From positions 12,028,001 through 12,092,000 of the forward strand of contig OZ004610.1 in the NCBI GenBank assembly GCA_963924565.1: DNA of 64,000 bases, in the 5' to 3' direction. Positions within the stretch are counted from its first letter, which is position 1; every line of letters begins with the position of its first letter. The notes below the pieces were generated by a model. That model saw only the letters and a list, made by a program, of their open reading frames with translations, was not told the origin of the DNA and did no database searches. Shown piece by piece: positions 2,613-54,077 of this stretch. The stretch comes from Ascidiella aspersa (lineage: Eukaryota). Made by a program: the position numbers and the translations under genes.

Positions 2613-5600
2613 ATGGGCGTTACTGATTTCGCGACAACTGCTGCAGTTACAACGACGACAATTGCAGGTGTGCTCAATTGTGTTTTGCATCTTTTTTTGT
2701 AAACCATTGTTTAAGTAGCCATTACATACTTTTATAGCAGCTAGTTCCTAATCCAAAAACTACAGCAGACAGTCTGCATTTATTTTCAATGATAAACTTT
2801 GGTTGTAAATTACCATTCTTTTATGGTGATAAACCATAAATCAGTCTCGCTTGACAACTGCATTAGGGCACATAGTAGTAAAAACAAGAGCTATAATGCT
2901 TCTGTGAGGGGCCAGTTCACTTTTTATACGCCCAGTCGCTCAGTTCAAGATAAATACGAGTATAAACAGACGGAGCTTAAAACGTTAGTCAAACCATTCT
3001 TTTGTTTTCCAAATACTTTTTATTTTTTTATTTAGTATTGTAAACTGTTAAAAACGGTAGAGCAATTCATTTGTAAGTTCATCACCTCATTCAATTGACA
3101 TGTGGTCTAATTTAAAGCAACTTACTGATATTGTAGTCGACGAACAAGTTTGGTAGACGACAAACAAAATTGTCTATAATAAATAGCCATACATGCTCAA
3201 CATTTAGTTATTCATCTTAATTTGTGTGTTTCTAAAACGATACATTAGTGAAGCTTTGCTATAGCGGCAAGTATGAGCAGGCCTACGAAGTAGTCTATCG
3301 CACTCATAAACTGACATACTGTACCTGGCTGTAATTTTGCAATCTATTGTATTTATGTAGATGTGGGTGCCACAAAAAACCTGTTTCAACCGATCGACTA
3401 TGTCATTTTTGTTATTTTGCTTATGGCCTCGGCTGCAATCGGCCTGTTCTTTGCCATTCGCGACCGAAGACGAAAGTATGGAAACGATACCTCAGAATAT
3501 TTAATGGCAGGACGACAGATGTCTTTTGGTAAGAAATACATATTCACGTCTTTCCGACATAAAGGCAGTTTGGTAAGGATACATATTTCTTTAAACTATT
3601 TCCTAATGTATTCCGCGTGGTACTGCTTTTTGCAAAAAAATATTTTCTTTAACTTAGTGGCAGTTTGCATTTATATAGTTTAATCTGGCACAAAATATAG
3701 CACCCTCTTCAGAGTTTATTTAAATTTATACCGAATGACAAAATATTTTGTTTAGGTCTAAAAGTTTGGCCCCTGACCTTAAAAAAGAGTATTGGTGGAC
3801 GCTATAGTGATTCTTGTATGTATAATGTTATTTTATCTAATCAAAACTAATGCTGAATTATCGGATCAATTTTTTTCAAATGTTGTATGAAAGAAGGGGC
3901 ACTGAACAGTAGTTTGGTCAGATTTATCTCCTTTCAGTTAGTAAACACAGCAGAACAACCACACAAATAAACATCTCCTATTCAACCATTACCAGTGCAT
4001 ATTTTAATCGAAGCACAACTTTCAATTTTATTCAGGTCCCGTGACAATGAGTTTGATCGCCAGTTTTATGTCTTCCGTAACGATACTGGGGGTTCCGGCT
4101 GAGTATTACATCTACGGCACTATGTTCACCTGGTTTGCGCTTGTCTACGCCCTGGTGGCCGTTATCATCGCCTATGTTTACATGCCGGTGTTCTACGACT
4201 TAGGTGCACACAGTACATACGAGGTTCGTTAAAGCCGGGTAAATGGAAACTTAAAATATAGGTCACCTTCGTGTTAAATAGTACAATTTTCGCGCCAAAT
4301 GCACAGCGTTCCGCTCTGAAAATCACGCATTATTGAGTGATGCCTTATCTCAACTGGTAGGCTTGCTATTTTAATCCAGTGGTATAACATGTTTATTGGA
4401 CGAAATATTTTTAACACTACCTATATTCAAGGACTTCACAGTTCTAACTTTACTCACACCGTTTTATATTTCAGTACTTAGAAATGCGATTTCATCGGGT
4501 CACCAGGCTCATCGTCACGTATATGTACTTTATCTTGTCGGTGAGTTTTTTTTTTGTTATCTTTACCCATACACAAACTTAAACTTTCCTATAATGCTTG
4601 CCCAGTTGCTGTACGGTGGAGTTGTAGTATATGGTCCGGCCTTAGCGCTCCAAGAAGTGACGGGATTTGATCTGTGGGTTGCAATCCTTTCAACAGGCTT
4701 GGTTTGCATGTTCTACACTGCACTGGTGGGTTTTTCATTAGGTATCGTAAAACACCTATATATGTATGTTATAACGCCAGTATCTACAAAAAAGAAAAAC
4801 ACAGTTAAAAACCTGCCACAGTTTGTTCCTATTTTGTTGTCTTATTTACAGGGTGGCTTGAAAGCTGTTATTTGGACAGATGTATTGCAAAGTGTCGTTA
4901 TGATGTCGGGATTCTTTGCGGTCATTATCCAGGGAAGCATTAATCATGGTGGTTTCGCAAACATATGGAACGCAGCGTACGAAGGAGGACGCATAGATTT
5001 TGTGCAGTTGAGTAAAAACGGAAATATTTTAATATAAATACAGCATTATATGTGTGTGTTAACCGCTGGCCCGCTTTTAAAACCTGCGTGTTAGGTTGTT
5101 TTTGGAATAAATGCACTGAAGCAGGGTAAAAACTTTTTACCATCTGTTTACGCCAGGGCTTTTCAATACGTTTAGGAAAGTCCCAGATACGAACGTTCAA
5201 AATTTGTTAAAGTCCGGCAAAGGCAACTACATACTTCAAAATAAAAGAAGTTTTATGTTTTCGAAATACAAAACTATTTAACTGAGCTTGTAGATAAATT
5301 TACGTTTTCTTATTTCTTTGCGAGTTCCTAAAATGCCACCAAACCGTACATCTGAGTATAGTTAATCAACCCAAACAAACTGGAAATTAATTGAGGGCCA
5401 TGCACATTCCAAAAAAACAGCCATCCAAAAGTCCAGATGTAGAACGAAGAAAGCGATTTAAGTTGTCCTGGTATATTTAATGTCGAATGAAATGTTGCAA
5501 CTTTGGTTTTGTAACTATAGTACCGTAAAACTCTGTCATTCCCTTTTTCTTCTGCAGTTTTGAGGCTGACCCTCGTATACGTCACACTTTCTGGTCCATT

Positions 5601-8600
5601 CTCTTGGGCGGAACAGTGTTCTGGATCGGCATCAACGGCGTCAATCAGGCGCAGGTGCAGCGCTACGTCTGTTGCAAGAGCAAGAGCGACGCACGAAAGT
5701 AGGCCTGATCGGATTAACTAAGCCAACACGAACAACGGCTGTCTTTAAAAAGCTTATTGCGAAATCGCACTTTTTTCAATTTACAAGTTTAACGTATATA
5801 CGCATTTACCAGCCAGTCAATGGAAGTTTCAAAACATGTTTAGAAGTATATTGCTTCGCAATAAAAAATATGTAGGACCTAAAATAGCATTTTATTTTTT
5901 TAAGGAAACGTAAAAATGAATTGCAATTACATGCCAAACTTTTCTGTGGTATACCCCTCATAATGTAATAAACCTTTCGTTTAACGGTGATACAAAATTT
6001 ATATTTGTTGCTTGCACGTATACGCGGTATAGTTATGCGACACTTCAAATTAATGTATTTTTTGAACTATTGTTAACAATTTGATGTGGATATTCGGAAA
6101 ACATGTAGCCTAACAATTGTGTAAAACTGATATAGGTCCATACTCGCGACTCCTAGAATTCGTGGCACTCCTTTAATATTGGGAAGCGCTGGTTTGTTAC
6201 GTTTGCTAATCCATTGTTTATGTCTTCTTATTACAGAGCAATTTTGCTGGACGGCTTTGGTTTAATAGTTATTTTAGTGATGGCCGGAATGACCGGACTA
6301 GTCATTTACGCGACCTATAAAGACTGCGATCCATTGGACAGCAACGCTATCAGTAAATCAGATCAGGTTTGTAGACAATTTGCCTTTCTTAAGCTCTCAT
6401 AAAAAGATCCAGCTTATATAACGTGTATTCATATTTTTCCAGCTTTTTCCTTACATTGTAATGGACATCTTGGGATATTTACCAGGTGTCCCTGGCATCT
6501 TTGTTGCTGGCGTTTACAGTAGCTCCCTGAGGTAATGTGTAGTATTAATCTTTTTATTTTACACAGATCGTATTGCTTATCAATACTTTGTTATGAATTC
6601 TGTATTATATACTTCGTCTTTTTTGGAAAAATAATGCTTTAAGAAATATAAAGCCATCCAAACACTAACTTTTGTCCAAAACTTTTTATCGAATCACTTA
6701 TCAGAGATAACTATTTAACGCTTTCTAAACTGTCAGGCGATATTGAAACGGAAGCGATGGTAATCAAATTGTGATATTTGTGTCGTGCTTGCATGAATTG
6801 AATAATGCTTCAATGAATTGAAGACTTTTAAACACGTTGTGCCTTTCAGTACTATATCTTCGGGGATGAATGCCATGGCGTGCGTCGCTTTGGAAGATGT
6901 CATCAAACCGAATACCAACTGGAGACCGCGCACCTACCTAACTGTCTCTAAGATCCTCGTCGTAGTCTTCGGGGTTCTGTACATTCTACTAGCTTACATG
7001 GCGTCTGTTGTTGGCGGACTAATTCGTGTAAGCACATACCAATTTATTAAAATTGGCCAAAAATACAGTTTGGGGCGCATTGACAAGTGACCCTATGTCG
7101 ATCCATCCCTGTTATTATTTTTACTTTGTCTCGGCGTCCAGGATTGTCTTATCAAAAGCTTCCCCTTTGTTATTAGTCATCCATTGTTGTCGTACACCTA
7201 CACTAATTGAATATTAATTTGCTGTGATTAATATGTTTAGCCAACTTGCTCAGCTACAGATTTACCGTAAAAGTAATGGCGCGTCTTCCATGTTAATCCA
7301 AAAAAAAAATAATAGTTCGATAAGCACTGAAACAATTATTCCAGTAATTTATCTGAAAACTATAAATTTTAAACAATAATCGTCGATTCAGTGTTGTATG
7401 ACTTAAGGCAGTGATCGGCAAACTGTTATTGTCGAGGCCCAAAATACCCTTTTCGAGATGCCTTAGAATATATACCGTCTTTAGGCGGAATAGATTTAAG
7501 TAAAACCGATAAAAGTTAATTTCCATAGTTAAACTTAGCTAAAAGTATAGTTTATGGGAGGGAGACATGGCCTGGAGGCCCTTTGATGTAACAATGAACC
7601 AAGATAAATCAGTACACATAAACTTTTACATAGTGCGACGAATGTACCGCTATCACGCGGCCCACAACTGCTTGATTAAACTAATTTATCGAAAAGTAGC
7701 TCGCGGCCTAATAAACATGACCAAGAGGTCCACATTTCTTTATAGTTTGCCGACCACTGACTTAAAGCAATGAATTTTATTTTTTTAAGTGTCTTTATTA
7801 TTTTATTTTAGTGAAAATGACTTGACTTGGACTTGCTGTTCAAAGACTTGTACTGGGACTTGACTTGGACCGAGTCATTTTAAAATGATTTATTTACAAC
7901 ACTGCGTCGAATACATGAATATTAAATAGAGCTTAAAAAACAGGATAACATTATTATATTGTTGGTTGCAGATGGCATACAGCATTCTTGGAATCATTGG
8001 TGGCCCGATAGCTGGAGTTTTCACGTTGGGAATGCTCATGCCGTTTGTCAATCACTGGGTGGGAGTTCTTGTGTGCTGTATATGACCGATGTTTGAAACT
8101 TGGGATCCAGGACTTTAGGGGGTGGTCATAAGTTTTTTTAGAGATGTCGTCGAAAAATTATGTTATAACGTCACGTCACAAAGTTACCTCAGTGCGTGAC
8201 GCCTTAGAATACAACATACCTCGTTTATTTTGTTAAAGTTGAAAGGTGTTATACTTTCGCTGCAAAAGCTACATTGCAAAATGTTATCGATTCGCGCAAA
8301 GAAAAAAAATTATGTCGTTTGATTTGGAACTTACGTGAAAGACTGTGCGATGGAGACGCAGGACGTATTTTGACTAAAACGACATTTAACAAAATAGGCG
8401 AAGCTTAAGTCATACCAGAAACTTTTCAAATTAAAAAAAATCATATTCGTGCGAAACGCGAAATATTAAATACCCGTTATGCCATTTTAGCGGATAATTA
8501 AATCAGTTCTCCATAGCGAATTGATTGTAACGCATCCACTAGCTTATAAGTAACAGGTAAAGGTGTTTGGTTTTTGCTTAATTTATCTAAAATAACCTCT

Positions 8601-10251
8601 ATAAAATCATTTTTAAATGTTTCCGTCTAGTTTTTTGTATAAAAAATGCGTCTTCTATAAAATGTAAATTTTGCCAAAAAACAAACTGCGAAATTTCTCA
8701 CGCTTCAATTGATTTATCTATTTGACAACATTTGACAAACAATCAATTTTTATTGACAACAACAAGCTTCTTTAAGTTACACATTTTATGTGATTACGAT
8801 ATGACGATTTTTACGATATAACGCATGTTATGATTTAGCGTATTTTACGATATGACGTAAGTCATGCTCAAGTACCAACCCCTAAAATCTTGAAAAGGTT
8901 TAAAAGCGACCCGGTTTAAGGTCTTAGATTAAAAAAAACAGTATGTGTATATTTATATATGTATAATTGTATCATTGTTTGTTAATTAAGGGTGCAACAT
9001 CTGGCGTGCTTTGTGGTTTAGCTTCAACTGTTTGGGTTTTCATTGGATCCCTGGTCTATCCCAAACCAGCTGAATTTTTTGGCGCACTGCCGCGGACCAC
9101 TGAAGGGTGTTCAGCAAAGGATGCCGTCATAATCTCCACCACTGCCCCTCCTACCAATTTCACGACGATAGGTCTCGTTTTGGCAAATGCAACCACCACC
9201 GAAACTATGCCTACGGATACCAGGTATAAGCCAACACTTTGTGGTTTAATCATTGTAAGTTGTGTAAAAACACGAGGACTGCAATTGGCTGATATAAATT
9301 ACAACTCATTCAAAAGCCTGCATATAGCTCAGTTGGTAGAGCGACGGTCCCGGCTAGACCGGAGGTCGTGGGTTCGAACCTCACTGCAGGCTAGTTGTTT
9401 TTCTAGCCTGCTCTGCCTGCATCATTAATCGATAGATTCGGTGAGTGTGCAATGGCTTTCAGTGTACATTAGTCAAAAGATTGGGAAATAGCCAAATGGT
9501 TAGCTTTCCTACCGTACAATTCATTTTGCAAACGTTTGTATGGCATTTAGTTTTGTGTAGGACCTAAGCCCACTCACCAATTATAAAGTCACACCTAATG
9601 GTGCACATACCAGAATAACTGTGGAGTATTATCTGCAGTAAGGTTCGATTTACTACTTTTTGCCAATCCTACCTTTTTGCCTTAAATTTCCAAACATTGC
9701 ATAATTTTTATGCGTTTTAACTTCAACTGCGTGTGATTTAGGCCCCCGATCGCGGATTTTTATGCGATGTCATACATTTACATCGCGCTGCTCGGCTTTG
9801 CAACATGCATCATTGTTGGGATTTTGGTCAGTCTAGCCACAGGTATAACTGAACAAAACTATTTAACTTTTGTTAAACGTTTTTCTTAGCTTAATTGATA
9901 GGCCTTTGTTATAGCAGATGTTTTACTGTTGTTTTTTTAGTATTGTTTTTGTAAAAAAAAATTAATAAAAAACGTACTCACATTTCGATACACGTTGGAT
10001 ATCAGCCTATATAATTTGGCACAGGATGCACCAAGAAAAATCCTCCGAACAGAGAACTTCTGTGTAGCTTTCTGAGATCAGGGGATGACGATGCTAATTC
10101 CGTTCTGGAACGTTCGGCCAGCTGGCACGCCGCCTCCCATCACATGGTGCAAGTCACTGGCGACATTGCAGAAGCCCAGCCTCTTCAAACAGCCAGGATA
10201 AAAGACGATGAAAAACAACCCTTTTCTGCCGAGAAGGAGTCCACTTTTTAA
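2613..10251 (+). CDS. SLC5-family Na+-coupled monocarboxylate/anion symporter (SLC5A8/A12/A5/A6 clade), about 645 aa, 14 exons
   Basis: Exons 2613-2667, 3361-3528, 4036-4223, 4475-4540, 4606-4725, 4852-5006, 5558-5698, 6237-6366, 6443-6531, 6850-7027, 7972-8058, 8991-9223, 9742-9842, 10025-10251. All are GT-AG and phase-consistent (1938 nt). Family motifs: [76 protein letters not shown]. Confidence 0.93.
7815..7905. repeat. Fragment of a GACTTGACTTG-rich MITE family
   Basis: tgacttgacttggacttg...gagtcattttaaaatga...acaacactg matches the end of the longer copy at about 40620-41028; another fragment lies near 59700-59760. Confidence 0.6.
9316..9470 (+). mobile_element. tRNA-derived SINE (intronic copy 1)
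   Basis: Head 9316-9391 folds as a tRNA-like cloverleaf: GCCTGCA/TGCAGGC acceptor stem, A-box TAGCTCAGTTGGTAGAGC, B-box GGTTCGAACC. It is followed by a non-tRNA body shared with the copy at 19421-19560. Confidence 0.8.
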
Positions 10252-13499: not shown

Positions 13500-13939
13500 G
13501 TGCAGCACTGTAGGACTGGTGTACAACCAAACCAAAAACAATACCATTATCATAGCAAAAAATTTAAGACTCGGGACTTGACGGAGTCACTTTGTTTTTC
13601 CAGGAGTCGGACTCGGGACTCTAGTAAAACCATGTAAAACTACTCGAGTTCCGAGTCCGACATGCGCATGCGTAGTATTAAAATTTAAAGTCAGTTAAAA
13701 TTTAACTGACATTGCCGCAAACTGTAAACTGTAAAGGTTGAATAACAAATGGTGGTTATATTCCAACAATGTATTGTAAGTGGATAAATTATATTACACT
13801 CTGATAAGGGATTTCTGAAAATCCACCTAAATTTAGTTGCGTAATTGGTGAATTACATGCTGTAGAGTCGGAGCCGGACTCGGGACTCGACGAAATATAA
13901 GAGACTCGGGAGTCGAACACAACCGACTCCGCAGCCCTG
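13500..13939 (-). mobile_element. MITE with GAGTCGGACTCGGG subterminal repeats
   Basis: Multiple gactcgggact/gagtcggactc motifs and a ccgactccgcagccctg terminus; homologous to 32070-32487 and 56865-57225. Confidence 0.7.
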
Positions 13940-14215
13940 ACAGAAACCACATTATAGTATAAGGAAACTGCTTTTCGCATGAGTTTAACAATTGTTTTTG
14001 TTTTACCTTCACTTATTTTACAAATTCGTTGACTGGGTCTTAAGTCATTAGCTTTTCCAGCAGTGCCACGCAATCTTTAAATTTTAAATTACACACACAC
14101 AGATTTTCAAAATAGTTGTTGTGTTAAAATAAGTAAAAAGATTGAGTAAATTTTAATTCACTTAAATGCTTTTGCAGGTCATTTTAAAGCCGATATCACA
14201 TTGTTAAACGATAAC

Positions 14216-17200
14216 ATGAAAGATTCACATGTCATTGGGTTCATCCTCATTTGCTCTTTACCGTTATCAGTTCTTTCACAATTACAGTGCACCATGGTTG
14301 ATTCCTGCAGGTAACTCGAAGATTACGGTGGTCGTGCTGCACAATAAATTGATCTGTTAACCGTTATTTTTTTCTGACAGCTGTCAGCCTAACAATGCCG
14401 TTGCTGGAAACCTCATAAACTTGCACAGCATAGCTTCGGTGGATGGAGAAGCAAAATTTATCGTTGAAGAAGGTGGAAATACTTACTTTTTTAATCCTTG
14501 CATTGGCTTTTCTCTTGGAACCTTTACCGATCTAGCGGTGAGTTTATATGGAGTGCCCTTTTAAATCCGGATCAATCGCGGATCATATTCGTTTTTTTTT
14601 CGTTATGTGCCTCATTTTGGCCCAAATAACGCTTACGAAATCTAGGACTAGGTAATTTAAACAGAAAATTGTAGAGCTTAACAAATTTGGAACAATAGAC
14701 GGGTAAACAATGTTTAGGGATACTTGCAATGGATTTGAATTTGGTGTGTGATGTTTAATGAATCTTTAATCGTTTTAGACACTATTTGTGTTTCAAATAG
14801 GTAGGGTTAATTTTTAATGTAATAGTTTGTTTGTTATTCAGGTAGCCAAACGTACGGCCGCTTTAATGGTGGTAGATATGGGCATACAGAGCAATGTGTC
14901 GTTTGACTACAGCACGAATTATCTCAGATTGCTGTATACATCGGCGGATAACGGGCAGTAAGTCAACTTGCAGATTTTTTCTCTTATTTTTTGTTTGGTT
15001 TTAATTTTTTAATTATCGATTGCTTTCTAAATGCGCTTTATTGCCCACAAAGCGTTCGTAACAACTTTTTTGTTATTATTTTTAGCCAATCCGTCGTTGT
15101 ACTTAAATGCAACGAAACGATTGGAGCAGAGGTTAGCCTTACATCAAGTTGGCCAACAGTAAGCTAGTTTTGCACCAATTTTTTTTTATTTGTGAAAATT
15201 TAACCTACTGTTATTAAAATGTTTTTTCTCATTACAAAAGACATTTTATTTTTTAATTTTCATACGACAAAAGTAACAAAGCTAAACATTATTTTATGTC
15301 CGTTTACAGAAACTATTTGGTTTACCTAAAGATATTATAAAATTAGATTATTATAATCTCTTTGGGTGTACCTTAATTTGTGTTAATTAGGAACCTCTTA
15401 CGGCCATTCATTAATCCGATCAACTATGTTCAATTTCATATTTTATTACAGACATTCGACCTTGTTTCGGCTTGCGCTTGTCCAGGCTTTTGCGACGACA
15501 ACGGATTAAAATGTAAAGATTTGAAATGTTTGTTAGAGATTACGTTTGTACAGTGTATAAATGACGGTTTCATGTATAACGGTGGTTCCCAACCTTTTTG
15601 TTGTCGTTTTTGAAAAACGTGCCCGAGTTTTCGGTGTATTACACTTTGTCTTATACGGTATAAGCCATAAGGGTTGCCATACTGTCCTTATTTCTAAGAT
15701 TTGTCCTTTCTTTAAAAGAAAATGTCTTCGAAATAAATATTGTCCTTATTTCTAAGAAATGCCCTTCTTTTTGACTTGAGTCCTTATTTTGTATTTTTTT
15801 CAACAATTACAAACATTTCTTTCAAGAATTTATGAGATCTTAAAGCGCAAGAAGACTTGTTATATAATAATATCTTGTTCATGCAAAACACCAAAGCAAA
15901 CAGAGAGATCTGTTTAATGGTGAAAATAACGGCCCAAATAGACGTAAAAAACGACATGCTTTATTGTTCAAACGTTTCGGCAAATGCTCATGCCATCATC
16001 AGTGATATGACCCCAAACAGAACCAAAATCCGGTTCCAAAGCAGCAGCACCCTGACGGCGCCGGTCAGACTAGGCCTAGGACGTCCAAACATAGTCGCCG
16101 AAACGACCGATGCCAGACCGATGGCCCCCGACCGTCCCATACCCTCTACCGACAGGTTCGGGCGTTATTTTGGCCATTTAAGCCTTCTTCCGGTGATTTT
16201 AGGCCTTATTCCGACAGATTTAGGTCTTATTTAGACGATTTTGATCTTATGCTGTACTGGATAATACTGCGTATTTGGCTGTATTATGTCGTTGGTCTTA
16301 ATACTATGGTTTTATAGATTTTTCTGCTTTAGATATTGTTACTTTTTAGGTCTTATTGTGTTTTCCCTGTCATTTGTACACCGTTCCTATTAATATTAAA
16401 CAAGGCTATATTATTCTGGAGCGTCGGTATTAATGGAAAACAAGAGTAATATAGTGATGTCATAAACAAGGCTGGTTCACCAAAGCAAAAGTCATTGTTA
16501 CAGTGAATGTTATTCTTTGCTACTTCAATGTAAAATTTTACTTTTCGGACAACCTTTTCCATGCACAATGGACATTAATCTTACAGATTGCAAGTCATTT
16601 ACCTAAATACTAACTTCACACGATCAAAAGTCTATTTTATAAACAGAACAATATATAAGTACTTAAGTAACCTAACAAAAAGGAACTCAAAAAGGCACGA
16701 GTTATCGTTATTGTAGGAGTACAGCCTTGCTAAACCATGGCTTGTCGGATTATTTGCAGTGTTTTGCGGAGCTGGTCGAGACTTGTTCGACCACGGCGTA
16801 ATTGAGGTTTGGGAAGATTGTGATGCGGTGAGTGGAATATTGACCTCAAATGATCCGAACAAAGTACCTTCGATTACAATTAGCGCTGGACAAGTTTCGA
16901 GATTTGATGATAATTGTGCAGTAAGTAAAATAATTATTGTTTTTTTAAATAATTTATTTGTAAAGATATAATAATCATAATTGACTTACACAATCGTGTC
17001 AAACCTTTCTGTTGTAAGTTTAAGGAAGACACTAAGACAGACCTGGGCAACATACGGCCCGCGGGCCAGCTCCGGCCCGCCAAGCAATTTAATCCGGCCC
17101 GCGGCTTATTTTCCTTACACTACATAGGATAAAACAAGGGCGAGTTTCTATATGTTTGGTTGAATCGTAAATACTCTTTCCAGGGTCGGATCTAGTCATG

Positions 17201-20200
17201 ACCCCGCCAAACTTTATATTGTTTTTTCGCGCTCCCCGCGCGAATCTCTGTATTTTCTCGTATGTTCTGTGTTTCTCGTATGTTACACGCGATTTTTGGG
17301 CATCTTTACATACAAATAGCGTCCTATGCACTGTGACAATCTCCCTAACGAAAGTTTAACAAACTTATTCTAAAAAAAAGTATTCCGTCTATAAAATAAG
17401 AACGAAATACCGACGGTTTTCTAAACTTTGATATATACCGATTCACATTTCGTCAACCTAACTGAGTTAATGCCATGTTGTGTGTTTCTCTCGATGTATA
17501 TCGTCTTTGCAATATGGCTATTGTAACGCAAGTAACACATCGGTAACTTAAAATCTTAAAAAGCCAAAAAAATTACATATTTTATTCCTAACCTTTGGGT
17601 CAACGCTCCCCACAACTTGCTAAACGCTAATTTATCAAGCAATGTATATTTTTTATTTGTGTTCAATGCGTCATGCCACCTCTAAATCTAAATTAAAGTT
17701 TACATTTTAAAACAAATATAGTGGCATTTTTTTCGTGCTTCGCGCGACGTCTTGTGGCCTTTTTCAAATTCGACTTAAATTGCATATTTTCGCACAATTC
17801 CAAACGTAATACCAAATTTGCTAACCTATTTGTTTTATGACGTCATATTGCGTGAATTTGAGATCCTAGGTTTCTCATGCGGAAATAATTGCCCACCCCT
17901 GATCTAAAAGGTTAACCGTTCGAAACGGAAAGATTTTTTAGATTGCGTGATCTGTAAACAACATATGTGTGTTAAAATGATATATAAATATTAATAAATA
18001 ATACGTTTTCGTAGCATTCATGTGGACTACCGTGTGCAGATGGCCACTAATAACTACAAACAATATTGTGGGATCAATTACTGAAAACCATCATAGTTTA
18101 GGTTTTCAATATTAACGTTACGTTTTTTAATATTTACTTTATTAAAAGATCCACTTGAAAAAAAGAATTCGCATCGATCTATAGTTTACTCTATAGCCTA
18201 TTAGCATTTCGCATCGCCTTTGTATAAGGTTTCAAAAAAAAGTTTGTTAAATCATTTAACGCAATTTTAAAAGCAAAATAAAAAATACTTTTTCGAAAGG
18301 CCGCTGCGGACTGTTCCAGGTTACATTTAACACTGAATCGAAGTATATGCGAAAAAGTTTTACAGGTTTTAATTGAAAACATAAGCAAAAAAAAACATTG
18401 TCGAAACATAATTTTTCGGAAATAAATGATTTAACTCATTTAATACCCAACTAACCTACTAACTTTAATGACGCGCAATTCGATACAAAATCTTGTCTAC
18501 ATTTCTGTAATGTTTAAATGTTATGACAATCTAAATTCAAAAGCCCTTAGTTTAGCTGCCGCTATATGAACTGAAGTGAAATTGACAAACAGAACTGTCT
18601 TTTGTTTTACCGTGCTTAACTAAATAGCGGCCAGCGCTACTTTGAAGGCCAAAAATCGAGCTAGCAAAACTATATTTTTTGCAAACTTTAACAATGGTAT
18701 GGTATAAGAAGCAACTGGCCGTTTAAAGGTGAAAATCGCTATGGCTATTATTAAACGTTTTGCAACGACGCCCGCTTGAAGCCTAAGAAGGGAGTTATTA
18801 TTTCGTCTTACAACGAACACCCGCCGTCCTGAGTCCTTCGAACAGTCCTAGCCAGATTTAAATAATTTATTAGTTTTTTAACTCGTATTAGCTTATTTTC
18901 ATAGACAAACATCTTTCCGTTTTCTCAATAAAGCTTTATTGGCAAAATAAAAACTTTACAATTACAGCATATTTCAAACGTAATCAAACTGATGTTTTCT
19001 TTTAGATCCATGAGGGAAATGACTCTTCTGGAGCAGTTCTAGCTGGAGTCTCTGAGGGTGGTATGTTTAACATTCGAGCTTCCGGTCAATCCATGTTTTA
19101 CGAATGTACGTTTTCCAACAACGCTTCTTTAACACTGTTGTTTCAGTCAGGTAAAAAACGCAATACATTATAATTTAGACAAGATTATTGGGCCAATATT
19201 ATTTTTTTATCTTAGGTTTATGCTATGTTACGTTCAAAGGCAATTTTGTTAAACACTTAAAAATGAAAAGCCCTATTTTCAAGTGGCTTGCCTTTCATTT
19301 TTGTTTTACACAAAGTGTAGGGTGGCTGTAAACTCCCTGCCATAGGGACAACGGATCGCAAGATTTTAAGAAGTGTATAAAAGCATTTAAACAGTAAATT
19401 ATGAGGAAGTACCATTAAGGGTACACCGAAAAGCCATCGCAGACTTACCGAATCTGTCGATCAATGATGCAAGCGGGGCAGCCTATAGAAAAACAAATAT
19501 CCTGTGGAGTGGTTCAAACTCACGACCTCCGGTCATACCGGGACCTGCGCTTTATCAACGTCAGTAGCGAAATAAATACAAAGTATTGTACATCCTAAAT
19601 GTTAATATTAATGTTGTTATTTTTCAATATGTTTTATAAGCAGAGTTACCATTTGCTAAGACGAAAACTAAGCAAGACTGCACTGTTATGACGCCAGATT
19701 GAAAACTTTGAATATTGCGCGATTGATATGTCTATAAGCAGCTAAAATTGCGAAACCGTTAAAATTTGTGCGGCTGCAATAAAATTACTTAAATAAAACT
19801 TGCGCGACAGCCGGCAGCAAATGCATTATTACAGAAAACCGTAAGCGCGACTGAAGTTTTGCACGTATGCTTGACGTTACGCAGCAGTTGAATGCATTTT
19901 ACAGCGATTTTTGCACGAATTGTGCGGATGCTGCAAAATAAGCACATTAATATTTTCTTAGACAACATACCTAAAATAATCACGAATCTTATATATATAT
20001 TCACGGAGAGGCAAACCTGTTTGTAGTTCATGTACTATTAAATAATAGGCCTCCTTAATAGATTTATTTTTTGACCCAATTATCAAAGTATAATTACTGT
20101 TGGGATATTCTAGCCGTAAGTTTGTATTACCTGGTTAAATGTTATACAATGCTACATTATTGTCATGTGAAAAACCGCTATGTAAGTTCGCTAAACAGAT

Positions 20201-23200
20201 ATGCGATTGCAAGCATTGATCAACGAAATTTCTGCAGACTAATACTACCGAAAGCAGTGTTTCTTGATTTTCTTCAGTTTATTTGACCACCATTGTGGTG
20301 GAACGCTACGTGTTATTCAGTCAAATACAAACAATACGACAGTAACAACTATACATGTGCATTGTGCATAATGGGCTTAAGTACCAGGTTGTTGTAAGGT
20401 TTTTGTGGGGTTAGAATTTTTGTTGCACTGCAATTGGCAAGTATTCATAAAAAAATGATGTTTGCTGGATCTTTTTTAGATTAGGGCAAGTTTACAAATG
20501 GGCACAACCTGCAGTATAAAGTATAACATAATCACCTCTTATTCACCCCGTTTCACTTTTTTAAGAAACACTTTATTTTACATGAATTTTTTATATAATT
20601 TTAATGTGCTTTACAAAATCATAACTTTTATGATTGCAGAGAGCGAACATGCTTTGACTTGTGGGGAGCAAACATTACTTCGGTTAGTTCTAGTTTAAGA
20701 TGTTATAGCCTGCTCGTTTATCGCAAGAACATGCTTAATATAAGTCCTTAATTTTGTAATTCTTTTATTTAATGTAACATTTCGGCCAAAAAATCAATTT
20801 AGTTACTCAATCGTTGATTTTTCATTGTGCATTTGAACACGGTAAATTAACTTTAAATTTACTCCCCTTTTTGTGGCTAAAATATTACAATACATATTTA
20901 AATTGATCTTTTTTCTATTTGTCTTAGCCTTGAAACGGCTGATTTGACAGAACTTAACGCGCAAATGGGCGATACGCTTTACATTGCGACAACACGCGAC
21001 ACAAATGCAACAAGTGTAAACCCCGCTTGCAGAAAGGTAGTGGGAACCGATGATCTCGAGTTTTCATTTGCAATTAACGAATGTGAAGGAATAAAGATGG
21101 TAAGTAAAATTTGCGAAAGAGTTCAAATGGTAGTCGAATTAAAAAACTTGCTTTTTACTAAAATGGCCTTCTTTTCTATTGCGTCTTCAAATTGTGTTTC
21201 AAACGTTTCAATTTTAGAACTGTTAAAATTTTAAAACACTGCAGATAACTAAACAAGGGAATACATCCAGAGGGATACGAGGTGATAAACCCCTCTTCAC
21301 AATATTTTTTCATTTTCATTATTCTTAAGCAAGTTTTGAGGGAATCTTTTGAGCCCATGGCACTCTCTTACTAAACGTTTTTTGCCTGGAGCGAATGTTT
21401 TGGTCTGTTTAGGCAAAAAATTATCTCTATAACATAACGAGTCTAATCAACTTACAATATTTTACCTTAACCAGGAAAATATTTTCAATACCCCCTTTTC
21501 TATGCGACTATAAGATATCAAATAGAATATCTAAAATTAGGTGTTCTATACGCCGCACTTTAACAGGGACAGTCCCATTTTTATGCCATGTCCCAGAGCC
21601 CCGATTTAGTCAACCAACATATTCTATTTACGTTACATATCAGCTTGTGGTAGTGGGGTCTTTACCGAGTTTGATGAGAAATGATGTCCCTGATGTGCGT
21701 TTTATTTCCTTGTGTTAAAGATGAATGTAACTGCAACGTCACTATAGCATACAATTTGTCAATTGTTGATTGTGAGCGCTTACTTCTAGCGTAACAGCAT
21801 GCTAGTAGTATTTTCTGCTGCGATTTTTTAAGAAAAAAATATGATATAGACCTCCTAAATAAAGTATAGCTTATATTAAAATAGTTTACCGAAAAGTACA
21901 ATGGGTCGATTATGTAAATGTACAAATATTTAAGTTTCTTGTGGTTTCTATAAAATCCATCGGTTTTTCTTGGTGTCCAACTTATTAGGTTGACCCGGCA
22001 ATTGGAATATTTTACAAGCGAACTACAATTCCTTTGGTCGGAGAAGACTCTCTCAAAATGCAAATATACTTTAAAATCTTTTGCATTTTTGTATAGATAA
22101 AATAGTTAAAATATGGGACATATAGCCTTGTGTCAACTATTTGAGAAAGGGTCGCGGACTGGATGAGTTAAACTGGCGGGCCTGCGGGCCGTATGGTTGC
22201 CGACCCCTGGTCTTCATAACCGAGATAAAAGCTATTTTAACTGATTGCAAACTGTTTTGGTATAAACAGTGTTTTCAAAAAAATAATGCAAGTGTGGCCT
22301 AATGAACCTAGTTAAAGCAATTCTTTACGAACACCTCTCACAACAAGGTTCTGCGTGGTTTCACGATATACAGCTGTAAGAGCAAATATCTCCACAGCTT
22401 GTTGCCAAAAGTCATCTTGGTAAATGCAATTATGCCACATGCAACAATGTGCCAAACTTTTTTTAGCTTTTTGTAGGTCCAGTCTCTTTTTGTTTAAAAG
22501 TTGCCTCAGTCATACCCAAATATTTGATTTTCGTAAAATAGGAAATGCCTAAACTTTCGATGGTTAGAATATATGCTAAATTTTTTGGACAGAAAACAAG
22601 GTTAGAAACATATAAGATTTAGAAACATATAAAAAATAAATAACATTTAATCTGGAAAAAATATCTTTTAAGGACTTAAAAGTGCTGAAAAGATTTAGTT
22701 CTGGTCCATGTCCTTCCCATCCAGTATATATATATGGGCAATATGTACGTTACAACTTTTATGCTTTATACCGGTACTAAAATAAGCTCATTTCATTTTC
22801 CTTATAGGAGAGCGGCGATACTTTAGAAATCACTTATATTGTTTGGAACGACAAGTTCCTTGTTGTTTCTCAAGCGATTCAACGTTACTTCATCCACTGT
22901 AAAAATTACACATGCGTTTACAACACCACGGAAATGGTCGACTCACTTGCCGTCGCACCAAAACTAAGGTAAGGTAATACTTTTCCACTATTTATATTGT
23001 TTTACCATAACACAATAACTTTCAAAAAGAGCAAAATCATCACTAAACGTCTAAAAAACTCTCTTGTTAGGACAGTAAATGTGTAAATGCAATCATTATT
23101 ATTTAAGGTATTGGTTAACTCACGAATTGTTTACAATGCATAATGAATATATAACCCAAAATACAATCTTGTGTGTTGTCCATGAAATGGATCGACTAAA

Positions 23201-26200
23201 TGACTAGTCTGAATTTATATCATTATTAAGTAGGAAGACGCGAGCATGCACCGTGTAATTTTAATCAAAGCTATCAAGCTGACTGTATAATCTTAATCAC
23301 TTATCCGTGTTGTACCACCATTGTGTAAAACACTGTAAGTTTGCTAAAGCCGCATGTTGTGGCTAGCGATTCAAGAAAGACAGTAGCAACTTAACATACA
23401 ACTAAATTACAATGTTTCTGAAATGGAACAACAAATTACAAACACTGTACTCACCAAAAGCACACAACACTTGGCTATGCATGTGACACACATTTTACGT
23501 AATGAAAACGCGTGACATATATCGATCGGAAATTACTTACAAATGTTAAACATTAATTTGTAGCAACAATCGTTCTACCGTTATTCAAGTAATATACTTA
23601 ATTCAGGTACCAAACGTCAAACGTAAGGACCATCCCGTTTGAAAATAAAAATTGCTTACTGTGTAGGCCTGTACCATATGTCCTCTTTTAGGAGGATTTG
23701 TCCTCTTTTCTCGAGAAAAGCGAATGGTCCTCCGAGGACGCTCAAAAATGCCCAAATGTCCTCTTTTTTCGCATTTTGAGTTAGTTGCTTATACTTTCAA
23801 CAAGACTTTAAGGAGAGACAGTGTATTTATTTCCAAAAATTACTGTAGCCATGAAACATGCTGAATTGCTGGTTTAAAAAATGTTTTCCAACAAATTGTC
23901 CTACCAGCTCTAACTTCTTAATTGTTATTGCAAACGTTGCTCCCGAAAAAACTGTTAAGGGAACCGCAAAGTATTCATGGGCTGAATCTGAAAAATAAAT
24001 TTTATTTGTTGTTATTGTGTCGGTTTTTGTAACTTTTGCTTCGCTTTTTTTTTAAATGTCCTCTTTTTGGTTGCTGAAAATATGGTAGCCCTATTACTGT
24101 GTAAACTGCTGCAATAAACGTGAACTCTCAAATCATCATCAAATTATTCTCGGGTAGGTTTGTCGTAAGATGTCCGTATAATTTTCTTGGTGCCTAACAA
24201 AATGATATTAAAGATACGGCCCGGGTTGTATAATTGTTGTCTCATATCGTTAGGAAAATTGGCTTTACTGCCGACCCGGTTATTGGAGAGTTAACAGTCA
24301 ACTTCGATTTGTCACTGACTGACAACTTCACTGATCCCTTGACCAGCGGTTCAACTGTCTTTGTTCCAGATTTTGTTTACGGACAGATCAGTTTACCAGA
24401 CATGCCAACTGATGCCACTAATTTCGTAATACAGGTTTGTTTGAATGTATTGCAATGTTATGAAAGCTTTCATGAAAGACGGTAAGCTAAGCCTAACGAT
24501 ATTTTGAAGTTGGCCTACTATCGACCTTTAACACGATTGAGTTGTCATGACGTGTACTAATTAACTTTTGTTTAATCCATTTTATCGGATCTATGTATTT
24601 CTGTTAAAATATAGATGACAAGTTGTTGGGCAACTCAATCTTCCGATCCCGCAAGTGGGCCAATATATCCCATCATTGAATCAAGGTGCCTGTTTACAAA
24701 CATAAAAACTTGAACGTTAAACTATGGTTGCAAGCCGGTTTTAATTTCAATATAAAACGCTTTGCATTCCGTGTGTGCAGTTGTGAAGCCACAAGTCTAT
24801 CGGAGCCTAATGGGACGGTGAACGTCATTCGAAACTACCTTCCACTGTATGGAGTTTTTAACTTTAAATCCTTCGAGTGGACGAACGTGACTTCTGATGA
24901 ACAAGCCATCTATGTTCACTGTATGGTGACTATTTGCGACTCTAGCTTGCAAGGAGCGGATTGTTCATCACCGGTAAATAAACTGTTCTATTATTATTCA
25001 ATGTCTTCCAGATGACGAATAGCGTGACGTTAACCATACCAGCAGTGCTCCGCAACCTTTTTATTTGCGACATATTAACATGGATTTAAAATTCTCAAAC
25101 ATACACATATAATGAAAATGACAATAACGTACCGGTAACGAATACAGTTAAAAGCATAGAAACATTTCAATGCTGACGGCAAGGAAGAAGAAAGGCGCAA
25201 ATAAATTTAGCATCATCTTAGTGCGAAACTGGTGTATAATTAGGATGCAGTAACTATACTTACGGTTAAAGTAAGGATGAATTATTTTCGGTTAACTGCT
25301 CTTACACGGCACACCAGTTGCGGAGAGCTGCTCTTTACTAGTACTCTGCTGCTGGCGAGGCCTTCCTATAGGAGTGTCGCTGTATGGAAAGTTTTTTTTA
25401 GCTTGTGCTTCCAAAGAACTTTAACGGTTTATATCACAGAACAGCCATGTTTGCCGTATAAAATAATCTAGGTGAAACCATAAAATATAGAAACAACTAT
25501 AACTTTTAAAGATAGTTTTACATTTCAAAGGTCAACTGCATGTTCCGAGGAATTGCCCAAAGTTGTCATTTTGAAATAATTTTACAAAAAAAAAAATTTT
25601 AAGGATAACGTGCCTAAACTATACATAGTTCTTTTCAGCCTTTCTACAAAAGAATCCTAAAGAAACAATCAATAGATATGCAATAAATTTGTAAAAATTG
25701 TCCTTCATCGCCTCGCATTTAACAAATTTAACTTGGTTCAAATTCTAAAATGGAATTTAAGCACACAAAAACATATTCAAGAACAATGACATGTGGGAGG
25801 ATACTGAAGATCTTGGGGCTTTTAAGCAGTACGATAATCCTGAAAATTAGAAAAATTTAAATCGATTTACGACTGCACAAAAGTCTGTTTAGAACTTGTT
25901 TTGTTTCATTAAATGCGCTTTTTCGCTTCGAATGATTGCTTGCCTTTGTAGTCTGGAATATAATTAGTCCTTTTTCAATTGCATAAAAATCCTGATTAGT
26001 TCCTGATTGATAGGTATTATCTCATATACTGCTTAAAAACCATACATTTTAACAACAAAATTGTTAGTGGTGTAATTAGTAAGGCCTTCCGTAACCGCTA
26101 AGTTTGGTGTTGGCCCGTACTTGGAAACTACGGTTGCCCAGCCCTGCCACAGGAATCGAAAGTTTAAACCACCAGACTATTTTTGTTTACAAAAAGACTT

Positions 26201-26581
26201 TGGGAAACTGACTGATAGCATGCATTCTAGAAAAGTTTTGTGGATAATACTTATTCTGAGATTAATACTTAGCCCAACAAGAGCGGCAATAAAATAAAAA
26301 ATATTACTCTGCTCTGCTCAAAGAATTTGGAACACATTTTAATTTGTTGTTTGCAGGCTTGCCGAAAACGTCGCTCTCTCGGTGATGCAGTGAATCATGG
26401 TGAAAGACACTCTTTTGGTCCAATCTATGTTTCCACGTTCCCAGAGGAAGAAACATTTACTGAGATACACGTGATGGAGATTACAAAGGAAAACGATGAA
26501 AAAATAAGTGTAGCGTCAATAGCTTGCATCGGGTTGTTTATGGTCGCGTTTGCTACCTTACTTCGTTTCATAGGAAAGTAA
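14216..26581 (+). CDS. Type I membrane ZP-domain protein with N-terminal MRH-like and CUB-like domains, about 617 aa, 14 exons
   Basis: Exons 14216-14310, 14381-14537, 14842-14957, 15086-15158, 15452-15512, 16760-16920, 19006-19150, 20640-20682, 20928-21099, 22808-22968, 24254-24434, 24615-24685, 24781-24973, 26357-26581 (1854 nt, phase-consistent). Signal peptide MKDSHVIGFILICSLPLSVLS. ZP-C motifs MTSCWATQS, IIESSC, FNFKSFEW, IYVHCMVTIC. Furin site RKRR, external hydrophobic patch SFGPIYV, C-terminal TM helix. Confidence 0.88.
17038..17901 (+). mobile_element. hAT-type non-autonomous element (intronic)
   Basis: Termini CAGACCTGGGCAA...TTGCCCACCCCTG with ggcccgcgggcc subterminal motifs. The TSD is degenerate (cactaaga/atctaaaa). 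Confidence 0.65.
19421..19560 (-). mobile_element. tRNA-derived SINE (intronic copy 2, more diverged)
   Basis: The reverse complement reads ...aaagcgcaggtcccggtatgaccggaggtcgtgagtttgaacc...gcatcattgatcgacagattcggtaagtctgcgatggcttttcggtgtac, collinear with 9335-9468. Confidence 0.78.
23664..24093. mobile_element. hAT-type MITE (TAGG-terminated) with 8-bp TSD
   Basis: TSD ttactgtg at 23656-23663 and 24094-24101. Ends are TAGGCCTGTACCATAT...ATATGGTAGCCCTA, with internal tgtcctc repeats. Confidence 0.8.
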
Positions 26582-29500
26582 AATTTAAGCTTAACGATGG
26601 TTTAGAGCCAAAACCAACTATCACTTTTAATCTGAAACCTTTTTTCATTCATTCGTAAAATCCATTTCGCCTGCGTTAACCAGGTTTAATCTTTATTGGA
26701 CGTTTTAAGCTTTGCGCAAATCGATCACATTTGTGTAGGCTGATATGAAAAGTTAAACATCTACAACCAAATTTTTGGCAAATTAATTTATTAACTACAG
26801 GTAAATTATATAGCTCTATTGTGATTTGTTACTGAAGTAAGAATTCTAATATTTCACTCAATGTGTTGGTGTTTTTTGTTCATTCATTAAGTGGGGATTG
26901 TTTTATGTGTAAACGGATTTTTTGTATGTTTACCTTATATGTGTAGCAATAAATAGACGCTGTGGTAATTGCCAGTGTGTGTACCCTTTTGGGTTCCCAA
27001 TCTTTTAGTTCGTGTAAACATTTTTATATTTTGGTCAGTCACCTTGTGATAAACAAACGAGCGAAAGGCGCGCGCCTTCTGCAGCGCGGTTTTCTATTGA
27101 GAACACTTAGGGGCGTCAACGAAACAATCAACACGTGTAACAAGTAGCAAATAAACTAATGTACACACCAACTATGATCTGTAGCCTACAAGCCGAAAAA
27201 CATATTGTTTGTTTTTGTACAATCGAAGCAGCTGCAAAATGCTGTAATCAAAATGACTATAGTAACAATAATCCATGTTGGCGCACTATACCAGCGTTAC
27301 ACGACATTCAGTTATATAGGCTACAGCATAAATTTTATTTAAAATGACGTCAATGTTCTTACACCGAGATTATACTTGATTTACTTAGCTCTGACAAAAA
27401 TATAGCCACCGCTTAGCCCGTTTTTTTTAACTTTTAAACAAAGCATTAAACATGTTCTTACCGGCAGTGCGAGAAATCTAACCGGTGTGATTGAGTGTTG
27501 GAGAAACTACAGACCCAACAGTGAACCGTCTTACAGAGCAAAGGCCTTAAGAAGATAATCCATTGACTCATTTTGCTGCGATAGCTTAAGTTTGTTGATG
27601 TGAAAACGGATTCTTGCTTTAATATTGACACTATTCCTGCTAATTTAGTTTATTGCTTGCTTGCGAACAAGAAAAAGGCGTAATTGTTAAACGACCCGCT
27701 GAACTGCTTTGCCCAACTTATCGATAAGCATTACGCGTATAATGATGTCACAAGGGCAGATTGAGATTAAAAGTTGCCTGTGGTTATAGTGCAAGAGGTG
27801 CGCAACCTGCGGCTTTTATGTGGCTTCGTACATGTTTGAGAAAAAACAAGTGTTTGCGAGTGTACATTAATACAAACGTTTTTTCAAGTTCACAGCAATC
27901 AGTAGCTTCAGTGTAATAAGTTACTAAACGGACAGACCTGATGGTCCTGCGAAAAGGGGCAGTTTTATATCCCTATTTACGAGAATAAGCTCGATTACCG
28001 AAATTGAAATTCGGTGACCGAAGACCCCAATAGCGAGTCGGTAATATGTTAGCTGATTTTGCGAAATGGGGGACCAACAAATTAATAAAAGCGACATTTT
28101 GTAAATTGCTTTAAATAAATTCAACAAAAAGTTTAACACTGTTAGGAAGGGTTGCCATAGGCATAGCAAATACGATGCATTTGGTCATTCTTAATGTCTT
28201 ATAGTTGCGCAAAAAGTGTATCGTAAGCCATTTAACGAAAAAATGACCTTCAAAATTGCAAATAATTAGTTACGGATTATTAAATTAGGACATTCAATCG
28301 ATCTGAAAACAACAACGAATTTTCGCATAAGGCCAATCGTCAGAGCCAGTGGGTGGCAATCAGCACTCGCCAAGAGCGAATTGCACTCGCATTAGCGAGC
28401 GGACGAGTGCATAATCCCAACCATGTTATGCTTAAATTGATTTTTATACCATCATTGCATTTCCATGTTTTTAATAATGAATTATGACAGTACAGACCTC
28501 TTTGTTTGTTTCGGTGTTTTGCCAGAACGTAATACTCTTATTATATAAGCACAGTGGCGTATCCAGCCGAAAATTTTGGGGGTGGGGGCAAAAAGTTTGA
28601 ACTTTTTGTTTAGCTTTTGCCATTATATTTACCGCCGTAACGAACACAATAACAATGTTAGCAAACCGTTTCGAGCAGCAACTGACTGAGTGTTAACGCA
28701 ATACTCCATTTCCAAGAAAACCAATCAAACAGCAAAAACTGACTTTTAAGTAGTAAAACTACATTAATGTATAGCAAATGTAATATTAACTACATCGTTT
28801 GTGACGTAACAGTGCATGACAATTGAAGGTGTGGCATGCCTGTGAACGACTGTTGTGGTACTGCTCACAAATGTTAAAAAAACAAAGAGTTAAGAGTAAA
28901 ATATTTATAAATTTTTGGGGGGGCCATGGCCAGCCACCCCCCCCCCCTCGTTAAATTGCTTACGATACACTTTCGCCCAACTACAACTAACCATTGACCA
29001 AACGCATGGCATGTTACATAAAACGTCCTAAACGTTCAATATTTCGATGAACAATTAAAACGATCCAATGGTGAAGAAAATAGTTATTTGCTGAACATCA
29101 GACCTAATAATATTTCTCAAGGAGAGATTTCGCGCTGTGAAAATAATATGGTAATAAAAACTCACATAAAATCATCTTGCATAATCTTGATTTAGAAAGG
29201 CGGATTAAAGCGGATAAAAATATTACCCGCAACATGCCAAGACTACATTCCAAACGGCTCACATATTGTTAATAAGATCGCTCTCTTTAACTATCAATTT
29301 TTATCCGTTTTTATTTTCAAAATCAGATTATTATTTGGCTTCTACATGTAGTTATAAACGAGCGAAAATTAAATTGTTCGGTTGTCCTTCTTTTCTTCTG
29401 CCGATGGTAACCCGGCCGGTATATAAGTTCTTAAATTTTCGGAGGAAGTCTTTGGCATTTTTATAAATAAGACAAAATAAGGTTTAAGTCAAACAGAAGG

Positions 29501-41114: not shown

Positions 41115-42391
41115 GGGTGGTACTAAATACCGAATGGTACCGAATGGTACCGAATGGTACCGAATGGCACCGAATGGCACCGAATGGCACCGAATGGAAC
41201 CACATGGGATTGAATGCTAACGAATGCCAAACAAACTAAACGTCTGTTTTACTCCTAAATCTGATTTAATTTTACACTGAAGCATATCTTGTCGCGTGAG
41301 AGTATTTTAAAACGTATGAAGCCTAAGGAGGGTTGCAATGAACATGGTACCGAATGAAACCGAATGGCACCGTATTGAACCCAATAAAACCCATTGTAAC
41401 TCGTAATAGAAACACTAAATACCGAATGGCACCGAACGGAACCCAATAGAACCGAACGGAATCCAATAGAACCCATTATGTAGCTCGTAATAGAAACACT
41501 AAATACCGAATGGTACCGTATTGAACCCAATAGAACCCATTATAACTCGTAATAGAAACACTAAATACCAAATGGTACCGAATGGCACCGAACGGAACCC
41601 AATAGAACCGAACGGAACCCAACAGAACCCATTGTAACTTGTAATAGAAACACTAAATACCGAATGGTACCGAATGGCACCGAACGGAACCCAATAGAAC
41701 CCATTGTAACTTGTAATAGAAACACTAAATACCGAATGGTACCGAATGGCACCGAACGGCACCGAACGGAACCCAATAGAACCGAACGGAACCCAATATA
41801 ACCCATTGTAACTCGTAATAGAAACACTAAATACCGAATGGTATCGAATGGTACCGAATGGCACCGAACGGAACCTAATAGAACTGAACGGAACCCAATA
41901 GAACCTATTGTAACTCGTAATAGAAGTTCCGTTCGGTTCTATTGGGTTGCGTTCGGTGCCATTCGGTACCATTCGGTATTTAGTGTTTCTATTACGAGTT
42001 ACAATGGGTTCTATTGGGTTTAATACGGTACCATTCGGTTCCATTCGGTATTTTGTGTTTCTATTACGAGTTACAATGGGTTCTATTGGGTTTAATACGG
42101 TACCATTCGGTATTTAGTGTTTCTATTACGAGTTACAATGGGTTCTATTGGGTTCAATACGGTACCATTCGGTACCATTCGGTACCATTCGAAACCATTC
42201 GGTACCATTCGGAACCATTCGGTACCATTCGTTACCATTCGATACCAATCGGTATTTAGTGTTTCTATTACGAGTTACAATGGGTTCTATTGGGTTCAAT
42301 ACGGTACCATTCGGTATTGAGTGATTCTCCTATGAGTTGTATTGGGTTCCATTGGATTCCATTCGGTACCATTCGGTATTTAGTACCACCC
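41115..42391. mobile_element. Foldback-type (Mutator-like) element built of tandem repeats, 9-bp TSD
   Basis: Ends GGGTGGTACTAAATACCGAATGGTACCGAATGG / CCATTCGGTACCATTCGGTATTTAGTACCACCC. TSD cttcaattc at 41106-41114 and 42392-42400. Arrays of the 10-bp unit ACCGAATGGT/C and a longer composite unit flip orientation at about 41925. Confidence 0.9.
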
Positions 42392-53917: not shown

Positions 53918-54077
53918 GCGGATAGATGTTGCTTTTACTACAATGTCGATACCGCTTGTTCCTGACTGCTTGTGGACGAAACCTGAAAAAACGGCGCGCG
54001 CTATTGACGACGATGAGCTTGCTGCTAATTCAGCTGCGGGCCGGTACATCTGGCGAAAATCCCAAGATGCTTTAGAT

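Follow-up and report, generated by a model that had tools for sequence, protein, structure and literature searches.

The locus examined here, within a 64,000-nucleotide stretch of the Ascidiella aspersa genome (contig OZ004610.1; hereafter the window), raises the question of whether a head related to the mannose-6-phosphate-receptor-homology (MRH) domains, a CUB-like segment and a complete ZP module are carried by one and the same protein and, if so, what such a head would do on a ZP filament. Fourteen exons on the forward strand, from 14216 to 26581, splice into 617 codons plus a stop, with no internal stop and with GT-AG borders at 13/13 introns. All the motifs quoted in a first-pass annotation, which had been made from the letters alone, were reproduced, together with its 617-aa length, its RKRR site and its hydrophobic helix at the C-terminus. 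The first AATAAA 3' of the stop (26948..26953, forward strand) is a likely polyadenylation signal. The window DNA is AT-rich and intron-dense, no second MRH or ZP gene was found inside its 64 kb, and the depth of the locus is even outside the intronic repeats in two DNA runs (X1 and X2) of one study. An earlier splice model, with an acceptor at 16717 and a different exon-1 end, contained stops and was discarded.

The ZP module, its cleavage site and its anchor occupy the C-terminal exons. ZP-N begins in exon 8 (20640..20682; aa 270-283, C277), continues through exon 9 (20928..21099; aa 284-341, C318 and C336) and ends in exon 10 (22808..22968; aa 342-394, C377), which also encodes part of the linker and an extra cysteine, C372 (22898-22900). 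Exon 11 (24254..24434; aa 395-455) holds linker and the start of ZP-C, followed by exon 12 (24615..24685; aa 456-478, C459) and exon 13 (24781..24973; aa 479-543, C480, C526, C531 and C540). Exon 14 (26357..26581) supplies C545, the RKRR site (aa 546-549; 26363-26374), an EHP-like SFGPIYV (aa 562-568), a hydrophobic transmembrane (TM) helix at about aa 593-612 (about 26504-26563), a 5-residue tail and the stop. Exon 13 matches Pfam ZP-C (PF00100) at 33.5 bits against a cut-off of 24.6 (E 5e-8) and exon 12 at E 7e-4, the four ZP-N and six ZP-C cysteines are kept in 14-17 of 17 relatives, and the GPI(T) motif of GP2 and uromodulin is aligned by the ZP-family profile. The complete ZP module with furin site and TM helix proposed at first reading thus stands with all its parts intact. 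Additionally, the mature chain contains 23 cysteines, the odd one being C372 in ZP-N; as this residue is absent from GP2 and uromodulin, and present in 11/17 relatives, it suggests an intermolecular disulfide between filaments.

With exon 13 as query, 29 library representatives were returned at E ≤0.001, and among the 20 of these that were looked up, 19 were ascidian (Phallusia, Clavelina, Ciona) and one came from a frog; short exons aligned poorly together with full proteins, and such mixed alignments were left out of the searches. The closest relative is the alpha-tectorin-like protein CAB3266892.1 of Phallusia mammillata (P0003), with 42% identity over the ZP module, whose own ZP search returned 3 of 1157 candidates, and the best PDB matches of the family are GP2 and uromodulin. 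A ZP tree with 23 rows places the model beside P0003 with support of 90/77, below the tool's bar, and this sister grouping is not strongly supported. The heads of the relatives vary widely: two CUB-like domains (P0003, P0015, P0017, P0019, P0039), FN3 repeats (P0023), NIDO-VWD (P0012), TIL with several CUBs (P0050), or no head. Judged by these matches, the CUB-ZP-TM part is a member of an ascidian uromodulin/GP2-like family with frequent changes of the N-terminal head. The four CUB-CUB-ZP-EGF proteins of Clavelina lepadiformis (P0015, P0017, P0019, P0039; 30-35% ZP identity) share with P0003 and with the window protein a first CUB with four aligned cysteines, a basic cleavage site, the EHP and a TM helix, whereas P0003 and the Clavelina proteins each have a second CUB of their own and no MRH head, the latter also carrying an EGF after the cleavage site.

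The middle segment, which had been called CUB-like over roughly 100 aa, is encoded by exon 6 (16760..16920; first half, aa 168-221, C170, C188 and C220) and exon 7 (19006..19150; second half, aa 222-269, C255, ending at a phase-1 donor), the assignment being based on homology and on the fold of the homologous region. Residues 168-272 score 14.8 bits on a profile of the first CUB-like domain of five relatives (top shuffle 8.4) and 18.9 bits against P0003 alone (top shuffle 10.2), compared with -0.6 bits on the relatives' second CUB-like domain, and the four cysteines in aa 170-255 all align with those of the first CUB. Positions 5-118 of P0003 align with 150-264 of the model (E 8e-6), positions 24-127 of P0003 superpose on CUB models with TM 0.77-0.81 in 10/10 of the matches listed, and its AlphaFold model (mean pLDDT 61.6) matches uromodulin as well as the tandem-CUB proteins PCPE-1, neuropilin and cubilin. 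PF00431 matched neither exon 6 nor exon 7 when these were scanned singly, nor did it match P0003, despite the CUB fold of the latter. By one step of homology through P0003, the middle domain is a divergent CUB, in agreement with the original call.

Vertebrate counterparts offer a further frame of comparison. Uromodulin, GP2 and CUZD1 resemble the window protein in the 4 + 6 cysteines of the ZP module, the cleavage site, the EHP and the membrane anchor, and CUZD1 forms one cluster among the structural matches to the CUB of P0003. The head of CUZD1 consists of two CUBs. The window protein has one CUB only, against the two that a CUZD1-type CUB-CUB-ZP layout requires, and searches of intron 7 for a remnant of a second CUB stayed within the range of shuffles, with p 0.49 for P0003 and larger values for four other queries; a CGGTL at 20285 in that intron, considered as a lost CUB exon, was rejected at the same p of 0.49. 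Likewise, no trace of a second CUB or of the EGF turned up in the introns examined, with p<0.05 in 2 of 49 query-intron tests, which is the chance level. Uromodulin differs in its D8C/EGF head, as described in the accessible part of PMC7737619.

The head itself begins in exon 1 (14216..14310), which provides the ATG, a predicted signal peptide (aa 1-21, the windows of highest hydropathy beginning at aa 3-10) and the first MRH-like residues (C25, C31). It continues through exon 2 (14381..14537; aa 32-84, with INLHSIAS and YFFNPC), exon 3 (14842..14957; aa 85-122) and exon 4 (15086..15158; aa 123-147, C131), and ends in exon 5 (15452..15512; aa 148-167, C155, C157 and C161), eight cysteines lying in aa 25-161. 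Residues 33-161 match positions 4-141 of a 142-position MRH/ATG27-type profile at 31.1 bits; the profile was built from 10 domains of six invertebrate proteins and is rotifer-biased. Shuffled sequences reached at most 7.1 bits (plain, 947/1000 reported) or 8.7 bits (cysteines fixed, 973/1000 reported), and the reversed sequence 1.7. An hhalign comparison of the head with this profile gave a probability of 95.3 and E 2.4e-8. Furthermore, the exon-2 reading frame is the top match of the profile among all open reading frames of the window (E 7e-5; next E 2.1), a result that holds whatever the splice model. An MRH-type domain after the signal peptide, with the boundaries first proposed, is supported.

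The homologues behind this profile were reached by screening contigs from metagenomes for a motif of the family, which gave nine loci, and by searching with the aligned pieces. Three of the nine (L004, L008, L009) are real-looking MRH-type genes, and the remaining six were discarded as chance. The MRH-piece alignment returned nine proteins from a set of 750 candidates 252-2000 aa long, four of the nine being named 'MRH domain-containing protein' in UniRef. One profile member, P0044, matches ATG27 (PF09451) at E 1.1e-15, has CD-MPR-like clusters as its nearest Atlas matches, and finds as its best PDB match 2KVA, a 148-residue CI-MPR domain (E 0.0017 alone, E 9e-4 as a profile); its AlphaFold model has a pLDDT of 39. 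Through P0044 and 2KVA, we infer an MRH beta-barrel fold for the head. As a sole query, exon 2 found none of 32 candidates and no PDB sequence, and a Pfam scan of 13 single exons returned no MRH-type or CUB model, ZP-C being the sole meaningful match. The invertebrate CD-MPR-like/ATG27-type proteins (P0041-P0049, including an Adineta 'MRH domain-containing protein') share with the window protein, besides the whole-domain profile match, the NPC, L.C and C.C...C motifs and the position of the domain right after the signal peptide, and in them the MRH domain is already mobile, occurring in tandem pairs and in MRH-LRR fusions.

Carbohydrate binding by MRH domains depends on four essential residues, Gln, Arg, Glu and Tyr. 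As far as the accessible text of PMC7481795 goes, these domains are beta-barrels of about 150 residues, carbohydrate is bound by 4 of the 15 CI-MPR domains, and a legend gives four essential residues, the last of them printed as Arg. The window protein retains C33, C72, C131, C155, C157 and C161 of the conserved cysteine set, while the middle disulfide pair is replaced by F80 (exon 2) and A86 (exon 3), and the sugar-binding positions are taken by K87 (Gln position, exon 3), H123 (Arg position, exon 4) and, also in exon 4, S144 and T147 or a gap (Glu and Tyr positions). In the aligned invertebrate domains the middle pair, like Q, R/K, E and Y/F at the sugar positions, is present in 10/10 rows, against 0/4 sugar positions and 0/6 positions overall in the window protein, and the alignment of the sugar positions is consistent with 2KVA. 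The layout of P-type lectins, with a TM segment and a cytosolic sorting tail right after the MRH domain, is likewise absent, the sole TM helix standing after the ZP module and being followed by the 5-residue tail. With neither cysteine of the middle pair left and none of the four sugar-binding residues conserved, the head is probably an MRH-fold module and not a mannose-6-phosphate lectin of known type. The idea of a matrix filament displaying an MRH head keeps its three domain calls and their boundaries, but the claim is lowered by the loss of the middle disulfide and of the lectin site.

A separate question is whether such a pairing is known. Among 50 ZP-derived relatives (13 of at least 550 aa) none has an MRH head, the best MRH-profile score being 4.5 bits, and none of nine MRH relatives has PF00100; both searches were shallow, resting on shared words or one short exon, and do not imply absence from databases. 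A full-text search, which covers few subscription journals, found no paper on an MRH-ZP or ATG27-ZP combination, although supplementary domain tables could hold one, and the word 'mannose' is absent from the main text of PMC9265791, PMC3543715, PMC3390340 and PMC13361971. The statement that no MRH-ZP protein is known thus held within these limited protein and literature searches. In their accessible parts, PMC13361971 treats the joining of shuffled domains to ZP modules as a general phenomenon, and PMC3390340 describes an Oikopleura house protein that has a ZP domain. Of the lineage-specific novelty suggested by the first-pass annotation, the pairing itself was not found elsewhere in these limited searches, but the ascidian family already swaps heads and the fusion hangs on the predicted junction of exons 5 and 6; read from the sequences, an ascidian ZP family of known, head-changing type would have gained a new head.

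That junction, across intron 5 (15513..16759, which contains high-copy repeats at about 15600-16500 and, before 16717, an alternative acceptor), decides between one gene and two, and we think it probable that exons 1-14 form one fused gene, with splicing from exon 5 to exon 6. Both of the splice sites concerned are of phase 1, the donor at 15512 and the acceptor at 16760, which scores 7.0 (leave-one-out matrix; range -2.1 to 9.1) and opens the CUB at a point matching the start of the mature chain of P0003; the first MRH domain of the metagenomic locus L008 likewise ends at a phase-1 donor-like site. An unlikely reading, though one of some weight, would have a small secreted protein of MRH fold encoded by exons 1-5, ending at the read-through stop at 15611 or in a further last exon, next to a separate single-CUB ZP gene made of exons 6-14 plus a first exon inside intron 5. 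It draws on the exon-5 donor, whose window allele scores 1.9, the weakest of 13 (range of the other 12, 2.3-9.4) and equalled or exceeded by 19/100 of 588 intronic GT sites; yet both other samples, X1 and X2, have the consensus G at +5 (15517), which raises the score to 4.4, inside that range. The exon-5 read-through stop has an AATAAA at 15732 beyond it, but the read-through tail stops where a high-copy repeat starts. Similarly, an in-frame hydrophobic stretch immediately 5' of FCG follows the alternative acceptor at 16717, which scores 8.5, and the CUB of P0003 begins directly after its signal peptide, but there is no Met from 16717 to FCG. Among the best 25 of 135 candidate ATG-start exons in intron 5, none convincingly encodes a signal peptide and also has a good donor, the top-scoring ones lying in high-copy repeat DNA and being unlike signal peptides. 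The filtered reads of about 6/100 of one RNA run contain no exon joints, and depth over 13 exon bins is 0-0.17, which favours neither the one-gene nor the two-gene reading.

On the one-gene reading, the mechanism that we consider reasonably likely combines an intact ascidian uromodulin/GP2-like CUB-ZP-TM region with a degenerate MRH head. Five MRH-type exons would have been joined to a CUB-ZP-TM gene by exon shuffling, phase 1 to phase 1 between exons 5 and 6. In the accessible part of PMC7737619, uromodulin is described as a membrane-anchored protein that is cut at a basic site, loses its EHP and forms a head-to-tail polymer with its N-terminal domains as branches. By analogy, the precursor would be cut at RKRR by a furin-type protease, releasing the EHP and permitting head-to-tail polymerisation into an apical matrix filament, from which the MRH-CUB head would project as a branch, while C372 may cross-link filaments. 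Expression would presumably be restricted to one tissue, for which our guess is the surface of gut or pharynx, with egg coat or gonad not far behind and any other site least likely. For the head, the favoured role is protein contact, or that of a spacer, in such a tissue-restricted matrix, and not binding of mannose 6-phosphate.

If the junction is real, the MRH fold joins the known heads of ZP filaments and, its lectin site rebuilt, takes up a place in the extracellular matrix, offering a clean test of sugar-blind MRH binding. The surprise is modest, since ZP proteins swap heads readily, this ZP family has five other head types, and the invertebrate MRH domain is already mobile. Variable ZP proteins are involved in ascidian self-sterility and gamete recognition, so a head that proved polymorphic and egg-coat-specific would carry greater weight. 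In a bolder but improbable version, the MRH fold would have been taken from lysosomal sorting by an ascidian and stripped of its sugar site, and would now top a ZP filament, where it would be polymorphic and serve in recognition (of gametes or of self and non-self) or as a microbial decoy; diversifying selection would act on it, and C372 would link the filaments to one another.

Two other readings turn on the differences between samples, of which the best-supported 40 of 240, from the two runs of one study, were listed. Six of these are exonic, all in exons 2, 3 and 6, and produce five codon changes, 5/5 of them non-synonymous, for which the chance is 0.005 at a dN/dS of 0.15, 0.035 at 0.3 and 0.28 under neutrality. 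It is quite improbable, in our judgement, that the head of the fused gene serves in recognition and evolves fast, in an egg-coat or self/non-self matrix protein, after the manner of the EGF repeats in HrVC70 or of the repeats in VERL. The all-replacement pattern in exons 1-6 would fit this, as would the richness of ascidian vitelline coats in ZP proteins reported in the accessible part of PMC9265791, yet neutrality predicts an equal count often enough, and because the differences are the best 40 of 240 chosen by support, diversifying selection and relaxed constraint are inseparable in them. As described in the same source, CiVC57, HrVC120/HrVC70 and HrVLP-1/2 share the signal peptide, the variable N-terminal head and the C-terminal ZP module with the window protein, but the ascidian coat proteins named there bear vWF or EGF-repeat heads and not CUB, a comparison made by description only. 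Least probable, to the point of being remote, is the reading that the fusion is young or the gene decaying, with an MRH head that serves no function under selection. The lost sugar site and disulfide, the amino-acid-changing differences in the head, the weak donor allele of the window and the lack of an orthologue among 50 ZP relatives would suit decay; against it stand 617 codons free of stops and frameshifts, 26 intact splice ends, the joint loss of both partners of one disulfide with the others kept, and the absence of exonic indels among the 12 listed of 31. Taken as an observation in its own right, a run of five non-synonymous differences out of five is unlikely under strong constraint and ordinary under neutrality.

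Across the probable MRH-CUB-ZP gene, divergence between the window and the contigs of X1 and X2, two DNA runs of one study, is greater in the 5' part (13900-19450; for example, 17 differences in 1714 letters and 11 in 537) than over the ZP exons (19600-27300; 4 in 2769 and 10 in 3303). Where the window has 929 nt of intron 6 (17040-17968), both X1 and X2 carry 416 letters of another sequence, which is likely an insertion polymorphism. Very high-copy intronic repeats, with summed contig depths ranging from thousands to more than 100,000, lie at 13800-13950, 15600-16500, 19212-19662 and 23270-24170, and it is because of these repeats that RNA reads were placed on the window.

At the 5' end of the gene, the interval 14170-14215 holds a good acceptor, TTTTGCAG, 37 nt upstream of the ATG, which could serve as a spliced-leader trans-splice site or close an intron in the 5' UTR. 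Further downstream, a CGGTL stretch at 20285-20371, with a second cysteine 23 residues further, resembles in pattern the second CUB domain of the closest relative, Phallusia mammillata CAB3266892.1; compared with shuffles, this candidate remnant scored no higher (p 0.49), and both X1 and X2 carry a 3-nt deletion within it, at 20295. The ZP-N region includes an additional cysteine, C372 (22898-22900), which is present in 11 of 17 relatives, whereas GP2 and uromodulin are without a counterpart. With C372 the cysteine count is odd, and the residue may act as a filament cross-link.

Upstream on the same (+) strand lies a sodium:solute symporter (SLC5-type) gene (~3315-9430), whose ORF at 4375-5034 matched PF00474 in the Pfam scan (E 7e-7). 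Acidic, Gln/Glu-rich ORFs at 51383-54113 (+) are probably exons of another gene; a Pfam scan of two of them gave no match. Repetitive ORFs at 41499-42113 derive from a tandem-repeat-like stretch.

Beyond the window, the Adineta proteins P0046-P0049 combine leucine-rich repeats and an MRH domain in one protein and are a further fusion of this mobile domain. Among metagenome contig loci, L008 (~609-1855, - strand) encodes at least two MRH-type domains in tandem, and L009 (~1014-2731, + strand) a single MRH-type domain, after which come a stalk rich in Ser/Thr and then a TM helix.
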